Positions 8,171-63,329 of a stretch of DNA of 64,000 nt are shown here, in pieces. The DNA is taken from the NCBI GenBank assembly GCA_945874155.1, contig CAMCFO010000003.1:8581-72580 (forward strand), written 5' to 3'. A model generated the notes under the pieces. The model searched no databases. It was not told the origin of the DNA and worked only from the letters and a program-made list of their open reading frames with translations. The translations under genes were made by a program, and so were the position numbers. Origin of the DNA: an uncultured Bacteroidales bacterium. Its GTDB lineage: Bacteria; Bacteroidota; Bacteroidia; Bacteroidales; UBA932. Every line of letters begins with the position of its first letter. Within the stretch, counting starts at the first letter, position 1.

Positions 8171-8215
8171 ATCAGAAAGGGGGGGGGATGACCAATGGCT
8201 ATCCCCCTGATTTTA
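8171..8215 (+). terminator. Probable intrinsic terminator between convergent genes
   Basis: tcag..GGGGG..at / at..CCCCC.tga imperfect hairpin followed by T-run. Confidence 0.5.
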
Positions 8216-11723: not shown

Positions 11724-11795
11724 TGTTAAGTTTTTGTTAACACACTCATTTCCCCAAGAATAATTTTGAATATCAATATTAAATACCGACCTTTG
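11724..11795 (+). promoter_or_regulatory. Cassette-1 promoter with TGTTAA-N5-TGTTAA operator, -33 TTTG and -7 GACCTTTG
   Basis: TGTTAA at 11724 and 11735, TTTG 11765, GAnnTTTG 11788; aligns without gaps to 59732-59803. Confidence 0.75.
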
Positions 11796-11836
11796 CGCGC
11801 TGAAAAGAAAAGGACAACGATAGATCAAAATTGATT

Positions 11837-12058
11837 ATGTTAAGGATGGCATACACCAGTGCTATGTCCGCCTCCGAAATAGTAAATAGGGGGGGGTATG
11901 AGTATGTAGTCCTCATCAGCAATAAACGCCGGTCATTCAGTCCGGCATACAGCCAGGGTGCTGACACCAGAAGTGTCAGTGCCCTTTTTGCGTATGAGCC
12001 AAACCCGTCCCCGGACGGCCCAAAGATACACGGACAAAATTACAATTTTGATAGGTAA
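11837..12058 (+). CDS. Putative leader peptide (73 aa) containing a G8 tract and reading through a terminator
   Basis: A-rich context before ATG; LRM..RGGY..V.L..SPA shared with the ORF at 59851; G8 at 11889-11896. Confidence 0.5.
   Translation: MLRMAYTSAMSASEIVNRGGYEYVVLISNKRRSFSPAYSQGADTRSVSALFAYEPNPSPDGPKIHGQNYNFDR
11956..11989 (+). terminator. Leader terminator/attenuator hairpin, cassette 1
   Basis: GGGTGCTGACAC-cagaa-GTGTCAGTGCCC-TTTTT (12-bp stem with 2 G.U pairs); same stem at 59975. Confidence 0.8.
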
Positions 12059-12075
12059 CACAAGTAGGTAACACA

Positions 12076-12122
12076 AGGGGGTACGTCGATGAGAATCGCC
12101 GGGTGAGTCCGAACAGCCCCCT
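12076..12122 (+). ncRNA. Putative cis-acting structured RNA element (unassigned), cassette 1
   Basis: AGGGGG/CCCCCT closing stem enclosing CGAT-GAGA-ATCG (GNRA loop) and CGGG-TGAG-TCCG hairpins; identical at 60137-60183. Confidence 0.55.
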
Positions 12123-12160
12123 ATTTTTGATTATTGTTGAACAACTAAATAATTAAAACA

Positions 12161-12307
12161 ATGAACAAGAAAACAAAAATTTCAACCTATGAGTCGCCTC
12201 TGGTACTTGAAGAGGTGCTCAACATTGAGCAAGGGTTTGCTCAGAGTTTCGGCGAAGCTGGAAAAGCCGGAGCAAATGGAAGTTATTCATTTGAAGGAGA
12301 TTTTTGA
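12161..12307 (+). CDS. Small 48-aa peptide MNKKTKISTYESPLVLEEVLNIEQGFAQSFGEAGKAGANGSYSFEGDF
   Basis: Translated by hand; strong A-rich initiation context; paralogue at 60222; immediately precedes the lipoprotein. Confidence 0.75.
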   Translation: MNKKTKISTYESPLVLEEVLNIEQGFAQSFGEAGKAGANGSYSFEGDF

Positions 12308-12321
12308 TGGAGGAAAGAGCT

Positions 12322-15300
12322 ATGAAGACAAATTTTAGATTCCTGGCGCTTTCTGCCGCCATACTTTCAATGTTCACCGCCTGCCAGCGCGAAGAACTTG
12401 AGCAGAACCAGAAACCGGAAGCCCTCACCCACAGCGTTACATTTGTGGCTGGTGCTCCTGAAACCAAGACTACCGTAGATATCAGTGATGGTAAGACCGC
12501 TAAGTTTAAGTGGACTAAGGCTGATGAGGGCAGATTTACCGTTTTTGAGAATGGAACTGAAGCAAGAGCGTCTGTTGGTGTTCTTAAGGATGGCAAAATG
12601 ACCATTATTGCAGAATTCGATGGTGATGCCCCTGCTACACCTAAGTATCAAGCATTATACAATTCAGAGGTTAGCGCAAGTCAGAACGTTACTGAAAACT
12701 CTTATGCAGAAGTATCAGATGTGATGGTTTCCAATGTGTTGGATGGTACTCGTGATAATGAGTTCGTTTTCAGCTTCAAGAGAGAGGTTGCATTTGCCAA
12801 GATGACATTGAAGGGCTTGACAAGCGGTGCTCGCGTTTCAAGCGTAACGATTGAATCTGATAAGCCTATTGCAGGTAAATATGATTTGAAGACAGGCACA
12901 TTCGTAAATACTTCAAATGTTATCACTCTTGATGTTTTGACTGATGTTGCTGATGGAAATGCTACGGTATGGTTCACGACTATCCCTGTTGAAGATGCCA
13001 CATTTACTATCACAGCTGAAACAACCAATGATCTTGAGGCTGTTGCAGCTACCTATACAAAAACATTCTCCAAGACCATCACCCTCACCCGTGGCGACGT
13101 GAAGGCCTTCGGCGTTAAGATGAATAAGGATGCGAAAGACCTCTCACTTTCTTTTGATTTTAAGACTCATCCGAGTGGCTGGCCTACATCAAGCGATGCA
13201 GCATCATCTGCAGCTGATTATGTGTATACTTTGAATGGTGTAGATTACAAATTCAGTTGTCCTGCAAAAGCATATTGTGGGGGAACTTCAGAAACTTCAG
13301 GTTATTTGCTTATTCAGTCTTCGACAAGTATGGGCTTGCCTGCTCTTTCAGGGTACAAACTTACAAAGGTAGTCGGGACTTTAAATGATTCAGGCACGCC
13401 ATCAACTTCATCGTCTATCTCTATTACTGATGGAGAGAATGTAGTTTCTGGTGGCACTGCACAAACATGGAGTACCAAGGGGGCCGAATATACATATTCT
13501 TTGACAGACACTGAAGAGAATCAGGTATACTACTTTACTGTCTCCAATAAGAATTGTCAAATGATTAAACTTGTTCTGACATATGAACCTGCGATTGCAA
13601 GAACTAATTTAGCAACCCCAACAAATCTTGCAGTTAGTGCTGAAAAGGTCGTTTCTTGGGATGCAGTTGACGGCGCAGCTTCTTATGTGCTGACTATCGG
13701 AACCGAGGAGTATCCTTGCACAAGCAATTCTTACGATGCTTCTGCCATCGCTGATGAGTATTATGACGTGGCTGTCGTAGCAGTTCCTACCGATACCGAG
13801 AACTACAAGAACTCAGCTGCCGCTACCCTTACCGATGCCAAGTTCGGCACACCGAAACTCGATATTCCTACACTTAAGAAAGGTACTGTTGATGAGTTCT
13901 CTGTAAATGCTACCTGGACAGTTGACTCAAAGGCTACTGCTGGATACAATTGCGAACTCTACAAGGGTGAGACAAAGGTTGGTGACAGCAAGACTGTAAC
14001 TAAAGGATCCGTCACCTTTGATGGTCTCGATGACGGTGTAACCTACACTGTTAAGGTCAATGCAATCGCTGTTGAAGGAACCAAGGCTTATGCAGCGTCC
14101 GCTGTTGCTACAATTGATTTGACAACAACTCCTGCAAGTAAAGTAAGTGATGTTACAGCGGCAGATACATATACTATCAAGAACCTTACAGTATATGCCG
14201 TACCGAACATCAGCCTTGCTATTCTTGGAGATGCTACAGGTTATATTCTTTACTATGTAAAAGGAGGTCATGGATTGTCAGTTGGAAATACTTTGGATGT
14301 AGCTGGTCCAGTTGTGGATTATTATGGATTATGGGAATTCAGTGGGGCAACTGCTTCAAATGTTAAGACTGGTTCTACTCCTGATTATGGAGAACCGGTA
14401 GAGGCAACAAATGAATTTTTGGCCTCTTTTGCGACAAAGCCATTGATAAAGTATATTCATGCTGTTGGCGAACAATCCGGACAAGATATTACTGTCGGAG
14501 AGAATAAGCTTCATTTAAGCGCAGCAAATTCTGCAACAGAGGGAAAGACTGTAAGTGTATATGGTTTCACATATGGATACCATTCTACCAATAAATACGT
14601 TCAGTTTGTCGCAACCTCCATCGCTGAGGACCCTACAGCTCCAAAACTTTCTGTAACTCCTACCTCAAAGACTTGGGCAAGTGAAGAAACCGATGCCGCT
14701 GTTTTCAACGTAACAACCAACACTGAGGGCGAAAACGATTGGTCAGTTTCACCTACCACCCTCGGTTGGGCAACAATCGCTATAGACAAGTCTGCCGGCA
14801 AAATCACTGTTACTCCTAACGATGCTAATACGACAAAAACAGCTCGTGAGGCAACACTCACCGTTACACACTCTGCAGGTACCTTGACTAAGACTATCTC
14901 TCTTAAACAGAGTGCGGCTGGAGCAGTAACAAGTATAGAGTTCTCTCAAACATATTCTTATGGTTTAAAAGATTGGTCATTAACAGAATATACCGACAAA
15001 AGCAGTTATTATCTTGTCCCTTCAGGCACGAATCCTAGTGTTGCAACAATATCAGGTATATTTACAAAGAAGACTATTCAATCTGATGTAGTTATTACAT
15101 TGAATGTCGCAACATTTGGAAGTGGTTTCAATCCTAGTGCACAAACATTCTCTATATATAATGATTCAGGCTGTACAACACCCGTGACTGCGGCTCAATC
15201 TGGTACACTGCCGACAAGCAGTTCATATACAAATGTAGTCTATACGGTTAAAAAAGAGGATGCAACCGCATTAACTTCTAATTTGGCAATTAAGATAACC

Positions 15301-15360
15301 AAACCGGGAAAGCAGATTCGTTTAAAATCAATACAAATCAAATTTAGTTATAGCAATTGA
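12322..15360 (+). CDS. Large surface lipoprotein (fimbrillin-like N-terminus, FN3-like and BACON-like modules)
   Basis: Likely start MKTNFRF at 12322, lipobox FTAC-QREE, ETKTTVD..KWTKAD, LATPTNLAV..VSWDAVDGAASY FN3 pattern, AREATLTVT. Confidence 0.75.
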   Translation: MKTNFRFLALSAAILSMFTACQREELEQNQKPEALTHSVTFVAGAPETKTTVDISDGKTAKFKWTKADEGRFTVFENGTEARASVGVLKDGKMTIIAEFDGDAPATPKYQALYNSEVSASQNVTENSYAEVSDVMVSNVLDGTRDNEFVFSFKREVAFAKMTLKGLTSGARVSSVTIESDKPIAGKYDLKTGTFVNTSNVITLDVLTDVADGNATVWFTTIPVEDATFTITAETTNDLEAVAATYTKTFSKTITLTRGDVKAFGVKMNKDAKDLSLSFDFKTHPSGWPTSSDAASSAADYVYTLNGVDYKFSCPAKAYCGGTSETSGYLLIQSSTSMGLPALSGYKLTKVVGTLNDSGTPSTSSSISITDGENVVSGGTAQTWSTKGAEYTYSLTDTEENQVYYFTVSNKNCQMIKLVLTYEPAIARTNLATPTNLAVSAEKVVSWDAVDGAASYVLTIGTEEYPCTSNSYDASAIADEYYDVAVVAVPTDTENYKNSAAATLTDAKFGTPKLDIPTLKKGTVDEFSVNATWTVDSKATAGYNCELYKGETKVGDSKTVTKGSVTFDGLDDGVTYTVKVNAIAVEGTKAYAASAVATIDLTTTPASKVSDVTAADTYTIKNLTVYAVPNISLAILGDATGYILYYVKGGHGLSVGNTLDVAGPVVDYYGLWEFSGATASNVKTGSTPDYGEPVEATNEFLASFATKPLIKYIHAVGEQSGQDITVGENKLHLSAANSATEGKTVSVYGFTYGYHSTNKYVQFVATSIAEDPTAPKLSVTPTSKTWASEETDAAVFNVTTNTEGENDWSVSPTTLGWATIAIDKSAGKITVTPNDANTTKTAREATLTVTHSAGTLTKTISLKQSAAGAVTSIEFSQTYSYGLKDWSLTEYTDKSSYYLVPSGTNPSVATISGIFTKKTIQSDVVITLNVATFGSGFNPSAQTFSIYNDSGCTTPVTAAQSGTLPTSSSYTNVVYTVKKEDATALTSNLAIKITKPGKQIRLKSIQIKFSYSN

Positions 15361-15686: not shown

Positions 15687-16601
15687 CTAAAGCGCTTCAA
15701 TAGTCTCGATAGACAATCCCGTACATTTGGCAATTAGTTCCAACGGGACTCCATTGCATTTGAAGTTTTTAGCTGTCTCAATGCGTCCCTCTTCGCGTCC
15801 CTCTTCGCGTCCCTCCTCGCGTCCTTCGAGCCGTTCCTGTTTGAGTTCCCATCTATAGTCCAGTTCTGTTTTCATATCCATTTCGTAATTTTCAAGTTTC
15901 TCTTGTGAAAAACCGGCAATCCAACTGGCCTCCACAACGTCTTTAATAAGTGGCACATCTTCAAGAGCTTCAGGTATAGACTCATAGGACCAGCTGTACT
16001 TGAACCAGTAGAACAGGAAGTCTCTTCGTGTCTTACATTCTGAAAGTTCGAGCTTGAAACGTGGCAGTTGTGCGAAGATACACAAAATGGTAGAAGGAGC
16101 AAAAATTTTTGTGGATTCTTCAACCATAGTGTACTTTGTGATAATCTTGGAAGAATCAATGCCAGCCTTGTTTTCAAAGTCCAGGGTAAAGTCCAGAAAA
16201 CTGACGATATAGACAGGATGGAGTTTGTCGTAGTCTTCACCTTTCAGAATGGATCTGGAATAGAATCCGGAAGCATAGTAAATGCACCTTTCAAAGAAGA
16301 CAACATCTTTCTTGCACTGAATTTCAACATCAAAGGTCCTCAAATCATCACTGACACAGACAAGGTCAAGGACAGATTTCTTGCTATAGGCAGTCTTGAC
16401 TATCTGTTCCCTGTCCAGATACTTGATGATGTCTTTGATCTGCGCATTCTCAGGCAGGATTTCATTCAATAGTTCAATTAAGAGGCTCTTGTTGTTTATG
16501 TCAGCAAAGACTGCCTTGAAGCCCGGGTCCTGACGCAGGTCAACAAAAATTTGTTTGTTGACCAATTGTTTTGTTTGGCTGTTTGTTTTCATGGTCGACA
16601 T
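15687..16601 (-). CDS. Rpn family recombination-promoting nuclease / PD-(D/E)XK putative transposase
   Basis: DPGFKAVF, LDLVC..DVEIQ..FFERCIYY, PVYIVSFLDF, C-terminal EGREEGREEG..IETAKN..IAKCTGLS; start chosen at MSTMK (ORF track extends to 16697). Confidence 0.9.
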   Translation of the reverse strand: MSTMKTNSQTKQLVNKQIFVDLRQDPGFKAVFADINNKSLLIELLNEILPENAQIKDIIKYLDREQIVKTAYSKKSVLDLVCVSDDLRTFDVEIQCKKDVVFFERCIYYASGFYSRSILKGEDYDKLHPVYIVSFLDFTLDFENKAGIDSSKIITKYTMVEESTKIFAPSTILCIFAQLPRFKLELSECKTRRDFLFYWFKYSWSYESIPEALEDVPLIKDVVEASWIAGFSQEKLENYEMDMKTELDYRWELKQERLEGREEGREEGREEGRIETAKNFKCNGVPLELIAKCTGLSIETIEAL

Positions 16602-16881
16602 TTTTGTTTTTAAAATCGAACCACAAACATATATACAAAAATTTGGGAAAAGCGCAATTGATAAAAAAGTGATGTCGATTTTTTCTTTTTTAATCAAGTC
16701 ATTATAAAAAATTCAGGCAATATCACTTTTCCATCAAAAATAATGTGTCAAAATTTTCAACAGATTTATTTATCACTCAAAAATTTGTCACTTTTTTATA
16801 AGAAATTTTCATACCATTCGTCGGGAATAGCCCCCTCGGCCGGAGCCGTATGTGGAGTTTTGCATAATATTTCATATCTTT

Positions 16882-58022: not shown

Positions 58023-59237
58023 TCATACATTTTTGGCGGCCCGGCTTGAAGGAGCCAAAGTCACAAGCCATCCTATCAGGGCGACACTGGCGCAAACCAG
58101 GGCGACGTCTGCCCATTGCAGTATTACCGGATATGCGCTCACCAGAAAGCCTCCGGGCATCTTTACGATTCCGAATTGCTCCTGAATCATCACTACTGCA
58201 ATGCCCACTGCCGCCCCTATGACAAGCCCCACAAGGGTGATGAGCCAGCCTTCAAGACGGAAGATCCTGCGTATCAGCGCGTTGTTGGCACCCATAGACT
58301 TGAGCGTGAATATGTCTTCTCGCTTTTCTATGGTAAGCATAGTCAGGTTGCCGTACACATTCAGCGAAATCACCAGTACCATGAAGATGAGTATCAGGTA
58401 GATGGCTGCCTTTTCGTATCTCATCATCTTGTACAGCGACTCGTTCTGCATATACCTGTCCTTCACCACGAAGTCTTTCCCCAGCCCTTCGCTGACCTTC
58501 TGCCGGACCTCAACCGCATCCCTTGCGCTCAAGCCCTCGATGAACCGTATTTCCACAGCAGACACTTCGTCTTTCAGGTCAAGCAACTCCCTCATAGTCT
58601 CCACGGGCACCAGAACCAGCCTTTCATCCACCTCGCTGTTGATGCGGAAAATACCTGAGGGCCAAACTTTTACGCTCTCAAGCGAGGCTGCGGGATTGAT
58701 GGTTGAAAATTTCCTTGTGCGGGACGGATACCAGATTTCCATAGGGGTCACAAAGGCCGGATTGGCTTCAAGTCGGTGGGCGAGGGCAGTCCCCAGACAG
58801 GCGAGTGGGACGCTGCCGCGGTGCAACTTGAATTCGCCTCTGACTATTTTGTCCTCCACTCTGGCCTCCTGCTCATAGATTTCATCCACACCCCTGACTG
58901 TGGCTGTGGCCTGCTGTTTTCCGTAGGAGATGAATACCGTTTCCTCCAATATGCAACACAGGCTTGCAACTCGCTCGTCATTGTAGAGAGAGTCGTAGAT
59001 TTTCCCCTCGGGCACAAAATACTTTCCTGAGGCGGGAGTGACCAGCAGGTCGGGCTCGATGGAACTCATAGTCGAAGTGACTATGCTGTCGAATCCGTTA
59101 TATACGGACAGGACTATTATCAGCGCAGCGGTGCCCACGGCCATCCCGCAGGCACTGATTGCAGAAATGATGTTGATGACATTCTGCTTTTTCCTGGCGA
59201 AGAGATACCGCCACGCTATTTTCAGTCCTATGCCCAT
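58023..59237 (-). CDS. LolC/E-family (FtsX/MacB-type) ABC permease
   Basis: IAWRYLF, SVYNGF, KREDIFTLKSMGA..IRRIF..EG. Confidence 0.88.
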   Translation of the reverse strand: MGIGLKIAWRYLFARKKQNVINIISAISACGMAVGTAALIIVLSVYNGFDSIVTSTMSSIEPDLLVTPASGKYFVPEGKIYDSLYNDERVASLCCILEETVFISYGKQQATATVRGVDEIYEQEARVEDKIVRGEFKLHRGSVPLACLGTALAHRLEANPAFVTPMEIWYPSRTRKFSTINPAASLESVKVWPSGIFRINSEVDERLVLVPVETMRELLDLKDEVSAVEIRFIEGLSARDAVEVRQKVSEGLGKDFVVKDRYMQNESLYKMMRYEKAAIYLILIFMVLVISLNVYGNLTMLTIEKREDIFTLKSMGANNALIRRIFRLEGWLITLVGLVIGAAVGIAVVMIQEQFGIVKMPGGFLVSAYPVILQWADVALVCASVALIGWLVTLAPSSRAAKNV

Positions 59238-59590
59238 TATTTTTTGAGCAGTTCGTCTATGTGTTCCACGTAGTCGAGGCTGGAGTCGAGGAAGAAGATG
59301 ATTTCAGGCACGATGCGCAGTTGCTTGCCCATAGCCCGTCCGAGTTCGCCCCTAAGTGCTCTGACATTTTCCTTGAGCCTGCCCATCACCGCGTCTGCCT
59401 TTGCGGAAGGGAAGATGCTCACGTAGATTTTTGCCACGGAGAGGTCCGAGCTGATTTTCACTCCGCTGACGCTCACCAAGGCCCCGTCAAATGCGGCCAT
59501 CCCTTTGCTGCGGATAATCTCTGCCATTTCCCTTTGGATTTCCCTCGCCACCTTCAACTGGCGGGTGCTTTCTGCTGTATTGTTTTCCAT
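59237..59590 (-). CDS. rbfA: Ribosome-binding factor A
   Basis: RQLKVAREIQ, DLSVAKIYVS, LRIVPEIIFFLDSSL. Confidence 0.94.
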   Translation of the reverse strand: MENNTAESTRQLKVAREIQREMAEIIRSKGMAAFDGALVSVSGVKISSDLSVAKIYVSIFPSAKADAVMGRLKENVRALRGELGRAMGKQLRIVPEIIFFLDSSLDYVEHIDELLKK

Positions 59591-59731
59591 ATTTTGTTCT
59601 GTTTTTACCTCATCCCCGACCAGTACGGGGAGTCGTTCCAGTGAATAGACAACATTCCCCGCAAAAATAAGTAAATTTTACGGGGAAATGAAATCTTAAT
59701 CAGCTTTGCTGCTTCTTTGTCAAAGGCCCGC

Positions 59732-59803
59732 TGTTAAGATTTTGTTAATAGGGGCAAAAATCATAGAATAATTTTGAATATATGTTTTAAATGTCGAAAT
59801 TTG
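59732..59803 (+). promoter_or_regulatory. Cassette-2 promoter with TGTTAA-N5-TGTTAA operator, -33 TTTG and -7 GAAATTTG
   Basis: TGTTAA at 59732 and 59743, TTTG 59773, GAnnTTTG 59796; constant 48008-bp offset from the cassette-1 elements. Confidence 0.75.
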
Positions 59804-59850
59804 CGGGCTGAAAGAGAAGTCCTGGGATTCCCGGGCAAAGGCAATTGAAA

Positions 59851-60018
59851 ATGAATAATTTGAGAATGAACAGTAATGCGTTGACTCCCAACGGTTTGAG
59901 GGGGGGGTATTATTGCGTCATTCTGAATGAGTTTGACAGTCCGGCTGCATTAGCAGTTGACAAGTATATACAGCGGGTGCTGACACCAAAAGTGTCAGTG
60001 CCCTTTTTTCGTATGTAG
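59851..60018 (+). CDS. Putative leader peptide (55 aa) containing a G8 tract and reading through a terminator
   Basis: MNNLRMNSNALTPNGLRGGYYCVILNEFDSPAALAVDKYIQRVLTPKVSVPFFRM; G8 at 59900-59907. Confidence 0.5.
   Translation: MNNLRMNSNALTPNGLRGGYYCVILNEFDSPAALAVDKYIQRVLTPKVSVPFFRM
59975..60009 (+). terminator. Leader terminator/attenuator hairpin, cassette 2
   Basis: GGGTGCTGACAC-caaaa-GTGTCAGTGCCC-TTTTTT. Confidence 0.8.
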
Positions 60019-60136
60019 TGTTTTGCAGCGGATTGCGTATGTGGTGTTTTGCAGCTGAACTTTGAATTGCAGGCACTCCGCTTTGATTGAGAATTGAGAT
60101 AAACGGACAACATAATCAATTTTGATAGGTAACACG

Positions 60137-60183
60137 AGGGGGTACGTCGATGAGAATCGCCGGGTGAGTCCGAACAGCCCCCT
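60137..60183 (+). ncRNA. Putative cis-acting structured RNA element (unassigned), cassette 2
   Basis: Identical to 12076-12122. Confidence 0.55.
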
Positions 60184-60221
60184 TCTTTTGATTATTGTTG
60201 AACAACTAAATAATTAAAACA

Positions 60222-60377
60222 ATGAACAAGAAAACAAAAATTTCAACCTATGAGTCGCCTCTGGTACTTGAAGAGGTGCTCCACATTGAGCAGGGGTTTG
60301 CTCAGAGTAACTTCGGCGAAGCAAATGAGGCCGGATCAGAACTTACTGAAAATAAGGATTATTCGTATGACCTTTAA
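60222..60377 (+). CDS. Small 51-aa peptide MNKKTKISTYESPLVLEEVLHIEQGFAQSNFGEANEAGSELTENKDYSYDL
   Basis: Hand translation; 28 of the first 29 residues identical to the 12161 peptide. Confidence 0.75.
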   Translation: MNKKTKISTYESPLVLEEVLHIEQGFAQSNFGEANEAGSELTENKDYSYDL

Positions 60378-60389
60378 TCTTATGCTGCT

Positions 60390-63329
60390 ATGAAAAATTT
60401 CTTGATTAAATCTGCAGCATTGGCTGCGTTGACCGTAATCTCTGCGGTTTCTTGTACAAAAGAACAAAATGTGGACGCATCTGTTTCTCAACCAGAATTG
60501 CACTTTATCATAAAGACTGCGGAGAATACTCCTGTAAAGTCCTTTATTTATAATAATCTTGACGGAACATATACTCCGAAGTGGACCAATGGAGACGAAC
60601 TTGCAATCTTCATCGGAACTATTTCTGACAAGACATCTTCCACTACAGCTACGTTATCGAATACAACTGAAACCGGAACGACTGCAAAATTTGAAGGAAC
60701 AGTTCCTACTGGCCTGACAGAAGGCACGTTCCTTTCTTTCAGCCCTGCCGATGCATTTGAGAAAGGATACACAGATGGTACAGTAGGTATAAATTTGTCA
60801 GAGATTCAATCTCCAAGCAGTCTGACCATTGATGAGGCATGCGATGTGTTGGTAGCAAGGCCTTGTGATTATACGGCGGAGAATGGGACTGTAGCAATCA
60901 AGGACTTGTATTTCAAACGAATCTTCTCAATTGTAAAGGTAAATCTCAAAGGCGTAGATGCTCTCAATAGCGAAAAAGTGACTTCGTTCACTCTTAGTGC
61001 ACCTGCAACCCTTACAGGTAGTGCTGCTGTGGATCTCTCTACCGCAAGCATTTCCCAGTGGAATACGAAAAATGAGTCTGTTGTTGCAAATTATACGAAA
61101 GATAATCCTGTATTTGGAGGAGAGGAAGGTTTGGAGAATACTGTATGGCTTGTTGTAAATCCTACCACTGTCGCCTCAGGTTCTGTAGTTACTTTCTCTG
61201 GGGAGACCGATAACTACACATTCTCTAAAGAGGTCACCCTTTCAAAGGATTTAGTTTTCCCTCAGAGCCAGATGGCGGTAATCAATCTTACCATAGGGGA
61301 AGGCAATTATACAGCAAAGACTGCTGAGACCAGAATCTTTGTGGAGGGATTTGATAATGTTGAAACTAAAGAAACTCAACTTCAGCCTTCTGTAACAGGT
61401 GCATCAGGCACGGGTGTGACGGAAGCACTTGCCTATACATATAGTAGTAAGAATACTAATTTGCGTTTTAATAACAATGGTCATTCAAGCACCAATCCAT
61501 ATCTGTATCTTTCGGGTGCAAATGACAATCTGATTATCAGCAACATAAAGATTAGTGGTGAGACGGCATTGAAATTCTCATATCAGGCAAAGACTAATTC
61601 GGGTTCAGCTACTATTACAATCAACTACAAGGAGAGTTCTTCTGATGTTTGGACGAAAGTTGGAACATCTACTGCTGAGACTGGGACATTTGATACGGTT
61701 AACGCCAATGTTTTTAATGTAAGTTCAGAGGCGACTTCTATAGATATTCAGATTGTAGGAAGTGCCGCTGCTCTTGTTGATGACCTTGTTTTGGAATCAT
61801 TCGTTGACACCCGAACCACGCTTTCTACTCCTGCAAACGTATCTGCAAGTGTGGATTCTGAAACCCCTAACAAGGTGAATGTTTCTTGGGGTTCCGTTGA
61901 GAATGCTTCCGGATATGAGGTTGTTCTCAGCTCTGAAGGAAAAGAGGACATTGTTAAGACATCAAGCACTTCTCCTCTTGCAGTTTCAGGCCTTGATTAT
62001 TCTACAACATATTCAGTTAAGGTAAAGGCTACAACTACAGATGTTGAGAACTATATTGAGTCTGAATACTCGGCAGCAGTTTCTGTGACTACTGAAGACA
62101 AGCCGGTAGGAGCAGCCGAGTGGGTGTCTACTTCTTTTGCAAATCTTAAGGCTGGAGATAAGGTTGTTATTGTCAGAAAAAGTGGTACTACCTACGCTAT
62201 GACTAATGGTAATGGTACAAGTAAAGCTCCAACTGCAAAATCTGTAACTGTTACTGGAGATAAGTTAGAAAAAATTCCAGAAAGCGATATCGTATGGTAT
62301 GTCGGAGTAAATGAGTCTAACAAGATATTCTATACATCCAGCGAAATGACGTCTTGGTTGTATTGCACGTCAACCAATAACGGTGTTAGAGTCGGCACCA
62401 ATACTAATAAGACATTTACTTATACTAACAATTATTTACAGCATGTTGGTACTTCGAGATATCTTGGAGTTTACAATAATGCAGATTGGAGGTGCTATAC
62501 TGCTTATGACGCAGAAAATATCAAGGATCAAACTTTCGGCTTCTTTGTTGAACAGTCCGGCTCTTCCGCAGGCGGTTCTGATCCTGTGAAACTGGCTACT
62601 CCTTCAGTGAGTTGCACAGCCAAGACTGCGACCAGCCTTACCTTCTCTTGGGCTGCAGTTGCCAATGCAAGTGGTTATCAGGTGAGCACAGACGGTGGCA
62701 AGTCTTATGGCTCTACACAGACCGAAACCAGCTACACCTGGACAGACCTTCAAGCCAACACTTCTCATACTCTGTATGTCAAAGCCATCGGTGACGGCAC
62801 CAACTACACAGACTCCGATGCTGCAACAGCCACTGGAACTACCACTTCTGGCGGTTCTACTGGTGGAGAACCAACTGTATTATACACATTGGATGCGACT
62901 GGTACTTTACAAGGAACAAATAACAGCTATACTGGCAATTGCGATATTAAATCTGACGGTATAACCTGGAATGTTACCGGTAATACCCAAATTAATCCTT
63001 GGAGAATGGGTGGTAAGTCAATTACAAATGTGGATAGGGCTGCTTATACTAAAACAGCATTCTCTAAAGCGTTAACTTCAATTGATGTAACATTTGGGGA
63101 AGCCTCTTCGATAAAAGTCAATTCTTGCAAGATTGTTTATTCGACTTCTGCTGATTTCAGCAACAGTAAGGAGGCCGTAGGAAAATTTGCAGCTAGTTCT
63201 ACTGTTAAGTTTGAAGCAGATTATCCGGCAAATTGTTATTATAAATTAATACTTAATGTAAGCGTTTCTAGCTCTAAGAGTAATGGATATGTTCAATTGT
63301 CAAAGATTGAATTCATTGGAAACAATTGA
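60390..63329 (+). CDS. Large surface lipoprotein (fimbrillin-like N-terminus, FN3-like modules)
   Basis: Lipobox AVSC-TKE, VKSF..KWTNGDEL, LSTPANV..VSWGSVENASGYEV and LATPSV..FSWAAVANASGYQV FN3 patterns. Confidence 0.75.
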   Translation: MKNFLIKSAALAALTVISAVSCTKEQNVDASVSQPELHFIIKTAENTPVKSFIYNNLDGTYTPKWTNGDELAIFIGTISDKTSSTTATLSNTTETGTTAKFEGTVPTGLTEGTFLSFSPADAFEKGYTDGTVGINLSEIQSPSSLTIDEACDVLVARPCDYTAENGTVAIKDLYFKRIFSIVKVNLKGVDALNSEKVTSFTLSAPATLTGSAAVDLSTASISQWNTKNESVVANYTKDNPVFGGEEGLENTVWLVVNPTTVASGSVVTFSGETDNYTFSKEVTLSKDLVFPQSQMAVINLTIGEGNYTAKTAETRIFVEGFDNVETKETQLQPSVTGASGTGVTEALAYTYSSKNTNLRFNNNGHSSTNPYLYLSGANDNLIISNIKISGETALKFSYQAKTNSGSATITINYKESSSDVWTKVGTSTAETGTFDTVNANVFNVSSEATSIDIQIVGSAAALVDDLVLESFVDTRTTLSTPANVSASVDSETPNKVNVSWGSVENASGYEVVLSSEGKEDIVKTSSTSPLAVSGLDYSTTYSVKVKATTTDVENYIESEYSAAVSVTTEDKPVGAAEWVSTSFANLKAGDKVVIVRKSGTTYAMTNGNGTSKAPTAKSVTVTGDKLEKIPESDIVWYVGVNESNKIFYTSSEMTSWLYCTSTNNGVRVGTNTNKTFTYTNNYLQHVGTSRYLGVYNNADWRCYTAYDAENIKDQTFGFFVEQSGSSAGGSDPVKLATPSVSCTAKTATSLTFSWAAVANASGYQVSTDGGKSYGSTQTETSYTWTDLQANTSHTLYVKAIGDGTNYTDSDAATATGTTTSGGSTGGEPTVLYTLDATGTLQGTNNSYTGNCDIKSDGITWNVTGNTQINPWRMGGKSITNVDRAAYTKTAFSKALTSIDVTFGEASSIKVNSCKIVYSTSADFSNSKEAVGKFAASSTVKFEADYPANCYYKLILNVSVSSSKSNGYVQLSKIEFIGNN

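Follow-up and report, generated by a model that had tools for sequence, protein, structure and literature searches.

The stretch of DNA analysed here, referred to below as the window, comprises 64,000 nucleotides of one contig of an uncultured Bacteroidales bacterium, the genome of which has a size of 2.59 Mb in 69 contigs and a G+C content of 48.8%. The window contains two cassettes with an identical order of parts, each consisting of promoter boxes, a leader ORF with a run of G's, a first hairpin (T1), a second structured element (T2), a small ORF, and a lipoprotein gene of around 1000 aa, which constitutes the cargo of the cassette (Table 1). The promoter layout of the cassettes comprises TTTG, a 19-nt spacer, and GAnnTTTG, followed by an A-rich stretch of approximately 35–45 nt ahead of the leader ATG. 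Based on their likeness to the Bacteroidetes −33/−7 consensus, we take the TAATTTTG and GACCTTTG boxes to be the promoter. The ATG of the first leader ORF is the first AUG past the predicted transcription start, and translation initiation in Bacteroidales does not rely on Shine-Dalgarno pairing. In both window leaders, T1 is located 59–67 nt past the G8 tract, with a stem of 12–13 bp and a run of five or six U's, and the interval between T1 and T2 is a variable stretch of 85–127 nt.

Table 1. Positions of the cassette parts within the window
Feature	Position	Strand	Details
Promoter boxes, cassette 1	11761..11795	+	TTTG 11765–11768 within TAATTTTG; 19-nt spacer; GACCTTTG 11788–11795
Leader ORF 1	11837..12058	+	73 codons; ATG 11837, stop TAA 12056–12058
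G8 tract, copy 1	11889..11896	+	Read GG GGG GGG in the leader frame
T1 hairpin and U5, copy 1	11955..11990	+	Stem 11955–11985, 13 pairs, 5-nt loop, then T5; inside the leader ORF
T2, cassette 1	12076..12129	+	47-nt junction closed by AGGGGG/CCCCCU, then AUUUUUG
Small ORF, cassette 1	12161..12307	+	48 aa, Y-E-S-P ... E-Q-G-F-A-Q-S family; stop overlaps cargo ATG (TGATG)
Cargo 1	12307..15360	+	Lipoprotein of ~1015 aa; weak, sub-threshold fn3 and BACON matches; alternative ATG 12322
Promoter boxes, cassette 2	59769..59803	+	TAATTTTG, then GAAATTTG
Leader ORF 2	59851..60018	+	55 codons; ATG 59851, stop TAG 60016–60018
G8 tract, copy 2	59900..59907	+	
T1 hairpin and U6, copy 2	59975..60009	+	Stem 59975–60003, 12 pairs, then T6
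T2 and U-run, cassette 2	60137..60190	+	
Small ORF, cassette 2	60222..60377	+	51 aa, same family as the small ORF of cassette 1
Cargo 2	60390..63329	+	Lipoprotein of 979 aa with fn3 domains (above threshold)

Neither the leader peptides nor the small ORFs had a match in Pfam or NCBIfam. In the search against Rfam 15, there was no gathering-score match across the window, and none at E-values up to 1 over positions 11740–12180.

A third copy of the leader is located on the same contig outside the window (C3:104290–104700). Its tract is G9 and its promoter pair is intact (TTTG, 19 nt, GACCTTTG), while its G8 form would end at a TGA within the 5′ arm of the hairpin. This copy is followed by a nuclease gene fragment, with no small ORF there. 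Contig C4 holds a fourth paralogue, which is more distant; it has the interrupted tract GGGTGGGG, a 77-codon frame across the leader, and no hairpin with a U-run. The arrangement of TTTG, a spacer of 19–20 nt, and GAnnTTTG is common to copies 2 and 3, the C4 paralogue, and other species.

Reading frame and length of the G tract

The sequence-only reading of this DNA, from which the present analysis started, had described a G8 run in both leaders, lying inside an ATG-started frame that crosses the hairpin. This arrangement was confirmed with correct coordinates, the stem having 12–13 pairs, and the LRM and SPA motifs said to be shared by the two leaders are both present. It had also predicted that G7 and G9 end the leader frame early, and the stops indeed occur exactly as written, 44–54 nt before the hairpin. 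By contrast, the claim that only G8 permits crossing has to be replaced, since the real rule is tract length modulo 3 and relatives are in frame at G9. The frame in which the hairpin is read differs between the two window copies.

For each window copy, 16–17% of dinucleotide-preserving shuffles gave rise to an ATG frame running through both the tract and the hairpin. Since such a share of the shuffles gives the same arrangement, the two window copies alone are not compelling, and the significance of the frame logic comes from the relatives beyond them.

The tract was also considered as a mutable repeat against the background of the whole host genome. The G/C runs of lengths 5 to 10 numbered 1226, 36, 8, 11, 10, and 1, respectively, which corresponds to a bimodal distribution with 36 runs of length 6, 8 of length 7, and 22 of length 8–10. 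Genome-wide, runs of 6–7 were strongly depleted and runs of 8–10 were in excess. All 11 of the runs within ORFs or uORFs had G on the sense strand, and most of the 22 long runs were located at the 5′ end of a gene encoding a large outer-membrane or surface protein, in small ORFs before lipoprotein genes, or in leaders. The host genome looks like one carrying a repeat-based set of phase-variable genes.

Many of the G/C homopolymers of the host genome are located at the 5′ end of a SusC-like or lipoprotein gene. Between convergent genes, some of the long G-runs are partnered by a C-run close by, and the two form terminator-like hairpins, such as GGGGGGGG-N-CCCCCCC-TTTT, with examples at positions 8179–8187 of the window and at C5:41701–41708. 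A long run need not be a coding or leader switch.

Tract lengths in other strains were obtained from metagenome contigs retrieved via the neighbouring genes, so that the sample was unbiased toward an intact leader ORF. In these consensus sequences of short-read metagenome assemblies, in which homopolymer lengths can be wrong, the copy-1 leader had G8 in six and G9 in nine independent assemblies, and no other length was seen. Both G8 and G9 were found on each of two SNP haplotypes (TCTCC and TCCCC), the flanks of approximately 280 nt being otherwise identical, which indicates that the tract length changed more than once. The copy-2 leader had G8, G9, GAT+G8, or GGT+G8 across strains, whereby the two +3 variants preserve the leader frame, and the loci L011 (G9) and L036 (G8) differ in the tract alone. 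The slippage-prone character that had been ascribed to the tract is thus reflected in length variation among natural populations (G8 and G9 with identical flanks, in consensus assemblies), and the tract is a real contingency repeat.

Conservation of the leader frame and the two structured elements

Homologous leaders with tracts of G7 to G10 were found in at least eight other uncultured Bacteroidales species. Those in genomes of the same genus were reached by small-ORF profile and DNA searches. In addition, a pattern scan (at least seven G's, a gap of 50–78 nt, the conserved hairpin bases, and CGT) was run over one genome per species for 185,579 species, and it returned 15 matches, all of them in MAGs of uncultured Bacteroidales. 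Three other searches gave no usable homologues: the window leader found nothing in a DNA search of same-genus genomes, the exact terminator sequence had 0 matches in the JGI metagenomes, and a small-ORF pattern built from three sequences gave 88 matches, none of which was confirmed.

In 14 of the 15 relatives, an ATG frame enters the tract after 15–19 codons, or more in three of them, and the frame extends into the hairpin or past it for exactly one length class (modulo 3), ending at least 26 nt short of it for the other two. Relative L123 has GTG in place of ATG. As assembled, six relatives are in the long frame and eight are in a short one, a mix that is the expectation for a switching locus. 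The in-frame length is G9 in most relatives as opposed to G8 in the host species, and this difference among loci fits a reading-frame readout, rather than one of spacing, structure, or a fixed length.

The same logic holds across nine diverged leader families, two of which are the window copies: one length class reaches the hairpin, and the other two stop at least 21–26 nt short of it. Between tract and hairpin, the hairpin-reaching frame contains 0 stops, compared with 37 in the other two frames. Shuffling produced the frame arrangement in 18–35% of the trials per family (0.18–0.35), and the product of these values, 5e-6, overstates the significance because the families share ancestry. A simulation within families, using the observed substitution numbers, gave a joint probability of around 0.003–0.03 for the frame staying open. 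The substitutions were distributed over the three codon positions as 19/16/19 upstream of the tract and 16/18/20 downstream, which is no bias. The open frame is retained, whereas the peptide sequence is not. A functional leader peptide was rejected on the grounds that it has no family match and no codon-position bias. That the leader ORF is a decayed member of the small-ORF family is speculation: a few residues near the tract show a PEI-RGG-V-V likeness, but the family HMM misses the leader ORFs.

With regard to T1, the consensus scan called both window hairpins terminator-like, with folding energies of −22.1 kcal/mol for copy 1 and −21.1 kcal/mol for copy 2 (z of approximately −5). A G+C-rich stem, a short loop, and an adjoining U-run give T1 the predicted form of an intrinsic (Rho-independent) terminator. 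When 11 distinct leaders were aligned, 93% of the cells were paired, compared with 36–47% in all sliding controls, and 8 of the 17 pairs had changed on both sides, which argues that the T1 structure is under selection. Most relatives have a longer stem, with 17 pairs and around −38 kcal/mol, and GUCGUAUAUG follows it instead of a U-run; a U-run after T1 is found only in the host species and one other family. For the relatives without it, either the ancestral T1 acted otherwise, through pausing, cleavage, or remodelling, or termination is non-canonical.

T2 lies between T1 and the small ORF and is made up of a 47-nt junction and a U-run. It is kept across species, with the exception of relative L130, and its closing stem covaries between them (AGGGGG/CCCCCU, GAGCCCC/GGGGCUC, and GGGGACC/GGUCCCC), always with a U-run following. 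No Rfam match was found for T2, which may represent a hitherto undescribed RNA of an attenuator or riboswitch-like type and may form a separate layer of control. A three-stem scheme of the trp kind, in which T1 and T2 are linked, was rejected, as the pairing of the T1 3′ arm with the T2 5′ strand in the window is not conserved and the polarity of the T2 stem is swapped in relatives. Moreover, T2 stayed intact in eight of nine loci when ribosome occupancy of T1 was modelled by masking its 5′ arm, and thus a three-stem link between T1 and T2 is not supported.

T2 contains a GNRA-type hairpin, CGAU-GAGA-AUCG in one form and CGUU-GAGA-AACG in another. In the relatives L119–L133, a highly conserved box, TTGAAATTATAAAGGT, is located just 5′ of T2 and has an inverted partner, AACCTTATAA, just before the ATG of the small ORF. 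Relative L130, which is without T2, has the inverted copy only. The two boxes could form a long-range helix or be a pair of recombination sites.

Proposed switch and alternative readings

The poly-G leader ORF is most likely a random on/off switch for the large surface-lipoprotein genes. Within this reading, support is good for phase variation and for the reading-frame logic, while leader translation, termination at T1, and relief of this termination by the ribosome are steps that we infer. The whole chain, from a frame set by slippage through the reach of the ribosome to termination at T1 or read-through into the lipoprotein operon, is in our estimate evenly balanced between holding and failing.

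In this scheme, a Bacteroidetes-type promoter would drive synthesis of a leader RNA, the first AUG of which opens a short ORF holding the poly-G run. Replication slippage would shift the run by one G at high frequency, as is seen in the population polymorphism, and the run length modulo 3 would set the frame past the tract. With the in-frame class, which is G8 here and would also include G5 or G11, the ribosome would translate into and across T1, whereas with the other two classes it would stop 44–54 nt upstream of T1. With a ribosome over or within the T1 5′ arm, the stem would be blocked, so that RNA polymerase would continue to the small ORF and the lipoprotein gene (ON). Where there is no ribosome at T1, most transcripts would end there (OFF). 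Only the reach of the ribosome would matter for this outcome, and not the sequence of the peptide. The sequence-only reading had proposed a switch of this kind. Its account is upheld by the hypermutability of the tract and by the frame logic across nine families, and falls short in that most relatives are without the U-run and T2 is left unaccounted for. Its statement that the antigen gene itself is not frameshifted holds, as the tract sits in a separate leader ORF, outside the cargo gene.

A broader reading, which we put forward tentatively, sees in the leader a portable, genus-wide module of two stages, in which a poly-G uORF gate and T2, together with the conserved N-terminal half of the small ORF, are placed before interchangeable lipoproteins. 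The first stage would be a stochastic gate in which the ribosome must reach the conserved hairpin, perhaps not by way of classical intrinsic termination, since the hairpin has no U-run in most species. In the second stage, T2 may be an attenuator responding to a ligand or protein, given the covariation of its closing stem and the U-run that follows in every case.

The readout of the leader frame could also differ from intrinsic termination altogether. The tract would then still set the frame of a translated leader, with the ribosome at the hairpin melting a structure that would otherwise bring on RNase cleavage, acting on a pause hairpin, shielding the RNA from Rho, or remodelling the leader to allow translation of the small ORF. 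Such a readout would agree with a hairpin that is conserved with covariation while its U-run is not, and with the presence of T2 and its U-run downstream across species. Translational coupling is suggested by relative L048, where the end of the long leader frame overlaps the small-ORF start (ATGA). In the host species, on the other hand, each of the three T1 copies has the complete form of a terminator, and the predicted folding of T2 is unchanged when the T1 5′ arm is masked. In addition, the in-frame leader stop lies 15 to 120 nt past the hairpin across strains and 100–200 nt before the small ORF, and direct coupling is therefore unlikely in the host species. On balance, we consider a readout other than termination unlikely.

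It is more doubtful that translation plays no part and the tract works as RNA or DNA, either as a G-repeat in a 5′ UTR that pairs with a C/U-rich sRNA or protein, as in the RepG–tlpB case of H. pylori, or through folding of the leader, so that the open frame would be incidental. The complete absence of stops from one frame across the nine families stands against this, as do the variation of the in-frame tract length by locus, the preservation of the frame by GAT+G8 and GGT+G8, and the fact that all in-frame tracts have G on the sense strand. What an untranslated tract would explain is the even spread of substitutions over codon positions, the leader peptide without a family match, and the ease with which the frame of a single copy arises in shuffles (16–17%).

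Improbable, in our judgement, is an arrangement in which the segment from the promoter to T1 is an independent sRNA gene of approximately 190–210 nt and the lipoprotein operon has its own promoter. A promoter and a terminator around 200 nt apart have the form of an intergenic sRNA, and the third copy precedes the nuclease gene fragment rather than a small ORF. Nevertheless, all 15 relatives and the host strains join the leader in the same order to T2 (L130 excepted), the small ORF, and the lipoprotein gene. Moreover, no −33/−7 pair was found between T1 and the small ORF in either window cassette, and TATTTTTG at the 3′ edge of T2 is present in copy 1 alone. Lower still we place the possibility that the length differences are assembly or sequencing errors, or neutral slippage without an effect on expression: the strain data are all short-read assembly consensus and copy 1 shows G8 and G9 only, but both lengths recur across assemblers, studies, and two haplotypes, runs of 6–7 are depleted and those of 8–10 in excess, and at least nine species keep the tract at an identical position of the leader.

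Three further designs were rejected. A promoter-spacer switch does not fit a tract whose first G is 93 nt past the GACCTTTG box and 120 nt past TAATTTTG. A coding-region frameshift gene was dismissed, as the cargo and small ORF of both window cassettes are without a G/C run of at least 7, although this design is present at other loci of the host genome. For an amino-acid-sensing attenuator of the trp or his type, there was no codon run beyond the GGG of the tract, and no conserved alternative pairing was seen.

Returning to the proposed switch by ribosome reach, its closest precedent is the pil1 operon of Streptococcus gallolyticus, where GCAGA repeats in a leader-peptide gene determine whether the peptide stops 39 bp short of a premature terminator or reaches into or past it, a scheme that was demonstrated experimentally in that species (PMC3894217). 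The principle of attenuation by a repeat in a leader ORF is therefore not new, and pil1 is its precedent, so far shown only in S. gallolyticus. As in pil1, a hypermutable simple repeat lies within a 5′ leader ORF (G8 in both window leaders), and its number varies within the species (G8/G9, in consensus assemblies). A premature stem-loop terminator, predicted here and without its U-run in most relatives, likewise stands between the leader start and the operon. Short leaders stop before the terminator, by 39 bp in pil1 and by 44–54 nt here, and long ones end within or beyond it, a split of end points that holds for the window copies, their strain variants, and 14 of the 15 leaders of other species. 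In both systems the ribosome would keep the hairpin from forming, and the cargo is a surface structure. The differences lie in the repeat, which is a homopolymer (G8/G9) rather than the GCAGA pentamer, with no sequence homology between the systems, and in the host, a Gram-negative member of the Bacteroidales. Furthermore, the pil1 scheme is experimental and the present one is predicted from sequence; this cassette is multi-copy and genus-wide, with a second structured element and a small ORF.

Other known systems share single aspects of the leader. In the pyrBI attenuator of E. coli, the leader ORF runs through an intrinsic terminator, and a closely following ribosome blocks the hairpin. The leaders described here likewise overlap the terminator, and the position of the ribosome is proposed to decide read-through, but the signal in pyrBI is physiological (UTP-dependent pausing), whereas a heritable frameshift would act here. 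With the poly-G loci of Neisseria, Haemophilus, and Campylobacter, the window leaders share tracts of 8–10 G, slipped-strand mutability, an association with surface proteins, and bimodal run lengths. In those loci the poly-G is in the coding sequence or the promoter spacer, while here the tract is in a separate upstream ORF, approximately 93 nt past the −7 box. The poly-G of uspA1 in M. catarrhalis and the G-repeat of tlpB in H. pylori, which is the target of the RepG sRNA, lie in untranslated RNA and have an effect graded with length (PMC8295292). Like the window cassettes, both have a G-run of variable length within the transcribed leader of a gene for a surface or sensor protein, but the frame periodicity and the conserved open frame point to translation in the present case.

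To our knowledge, the phase variation described for gut Bacteroidales consists almost entirely of promoter flipping by invertases. A literature search for repeat-driven switching in Bacteroidales found no description of it, and a 2025 review of phase variation mentions Bacteroides for invertases only and never mentions leader-peptide attenuation. If the proposed switch is true, an abundant uncultured lineage of the animal and human gut switches its large surface lipoproteins by slippage in a dedicated leader ORF, and a second phylum evolved an attenuator of the pil1 type on its own, using another kind of repeat. The ON and OFF states would then be readable from metagenomes as tract length modulo 3, making surface-antigen states scorable in population data. 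If the two-stage module is true, it would represent repeat-driven antigen switching in uncultured gut Bacteroidales, in parallel to the invertase system of Bacteroides.

Small ORFs and cargo across strains

The small ORFs of the two cassettes belong to a family of 42–52 aa (Y-E-S/T-P ... E-x-G-F-A-x-S) found directly 5′ of lipoprotein genes; in many cases the stop codon of the small ORF overlaps the start codon of the gene that follows. The host genome has at least nine copies, and some genomes of the same genus have 10–14. Further copies of the host genome are located at C4:14595–14741, C4:92674–92826, C18:24071–24223, C39:7189–7320, C33:5891–6025, C26:37113–37241, and C43:12188–12277, and in several copies of the family a poly-G run lies inside the small ORF itself. 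The likeness between the two window cassettes stops within the small ORF, at around codon 29.

The cargo of cassette 1 (12307–15360) was compared with the corresponding loci L134–L142 of other strains. The leader, the N-terminus of the small ORF, and the lipoprotein signal peptide are shared, and the remainder differs by strain, with cargo proteins of 635 to 1134 aa behind the cassette 1 leader and Flg_new or Big_3 domains in some of them. The cassette beside rbfA (59237–63329) is missing from most strains (loci L012–L020), which carry a PD-(D/E)XK (Rpn-type) gene and an acetyl-CoA hydrolase gene at this site. Rpn-type genes also adjoin cassette 1 (15687–16697).
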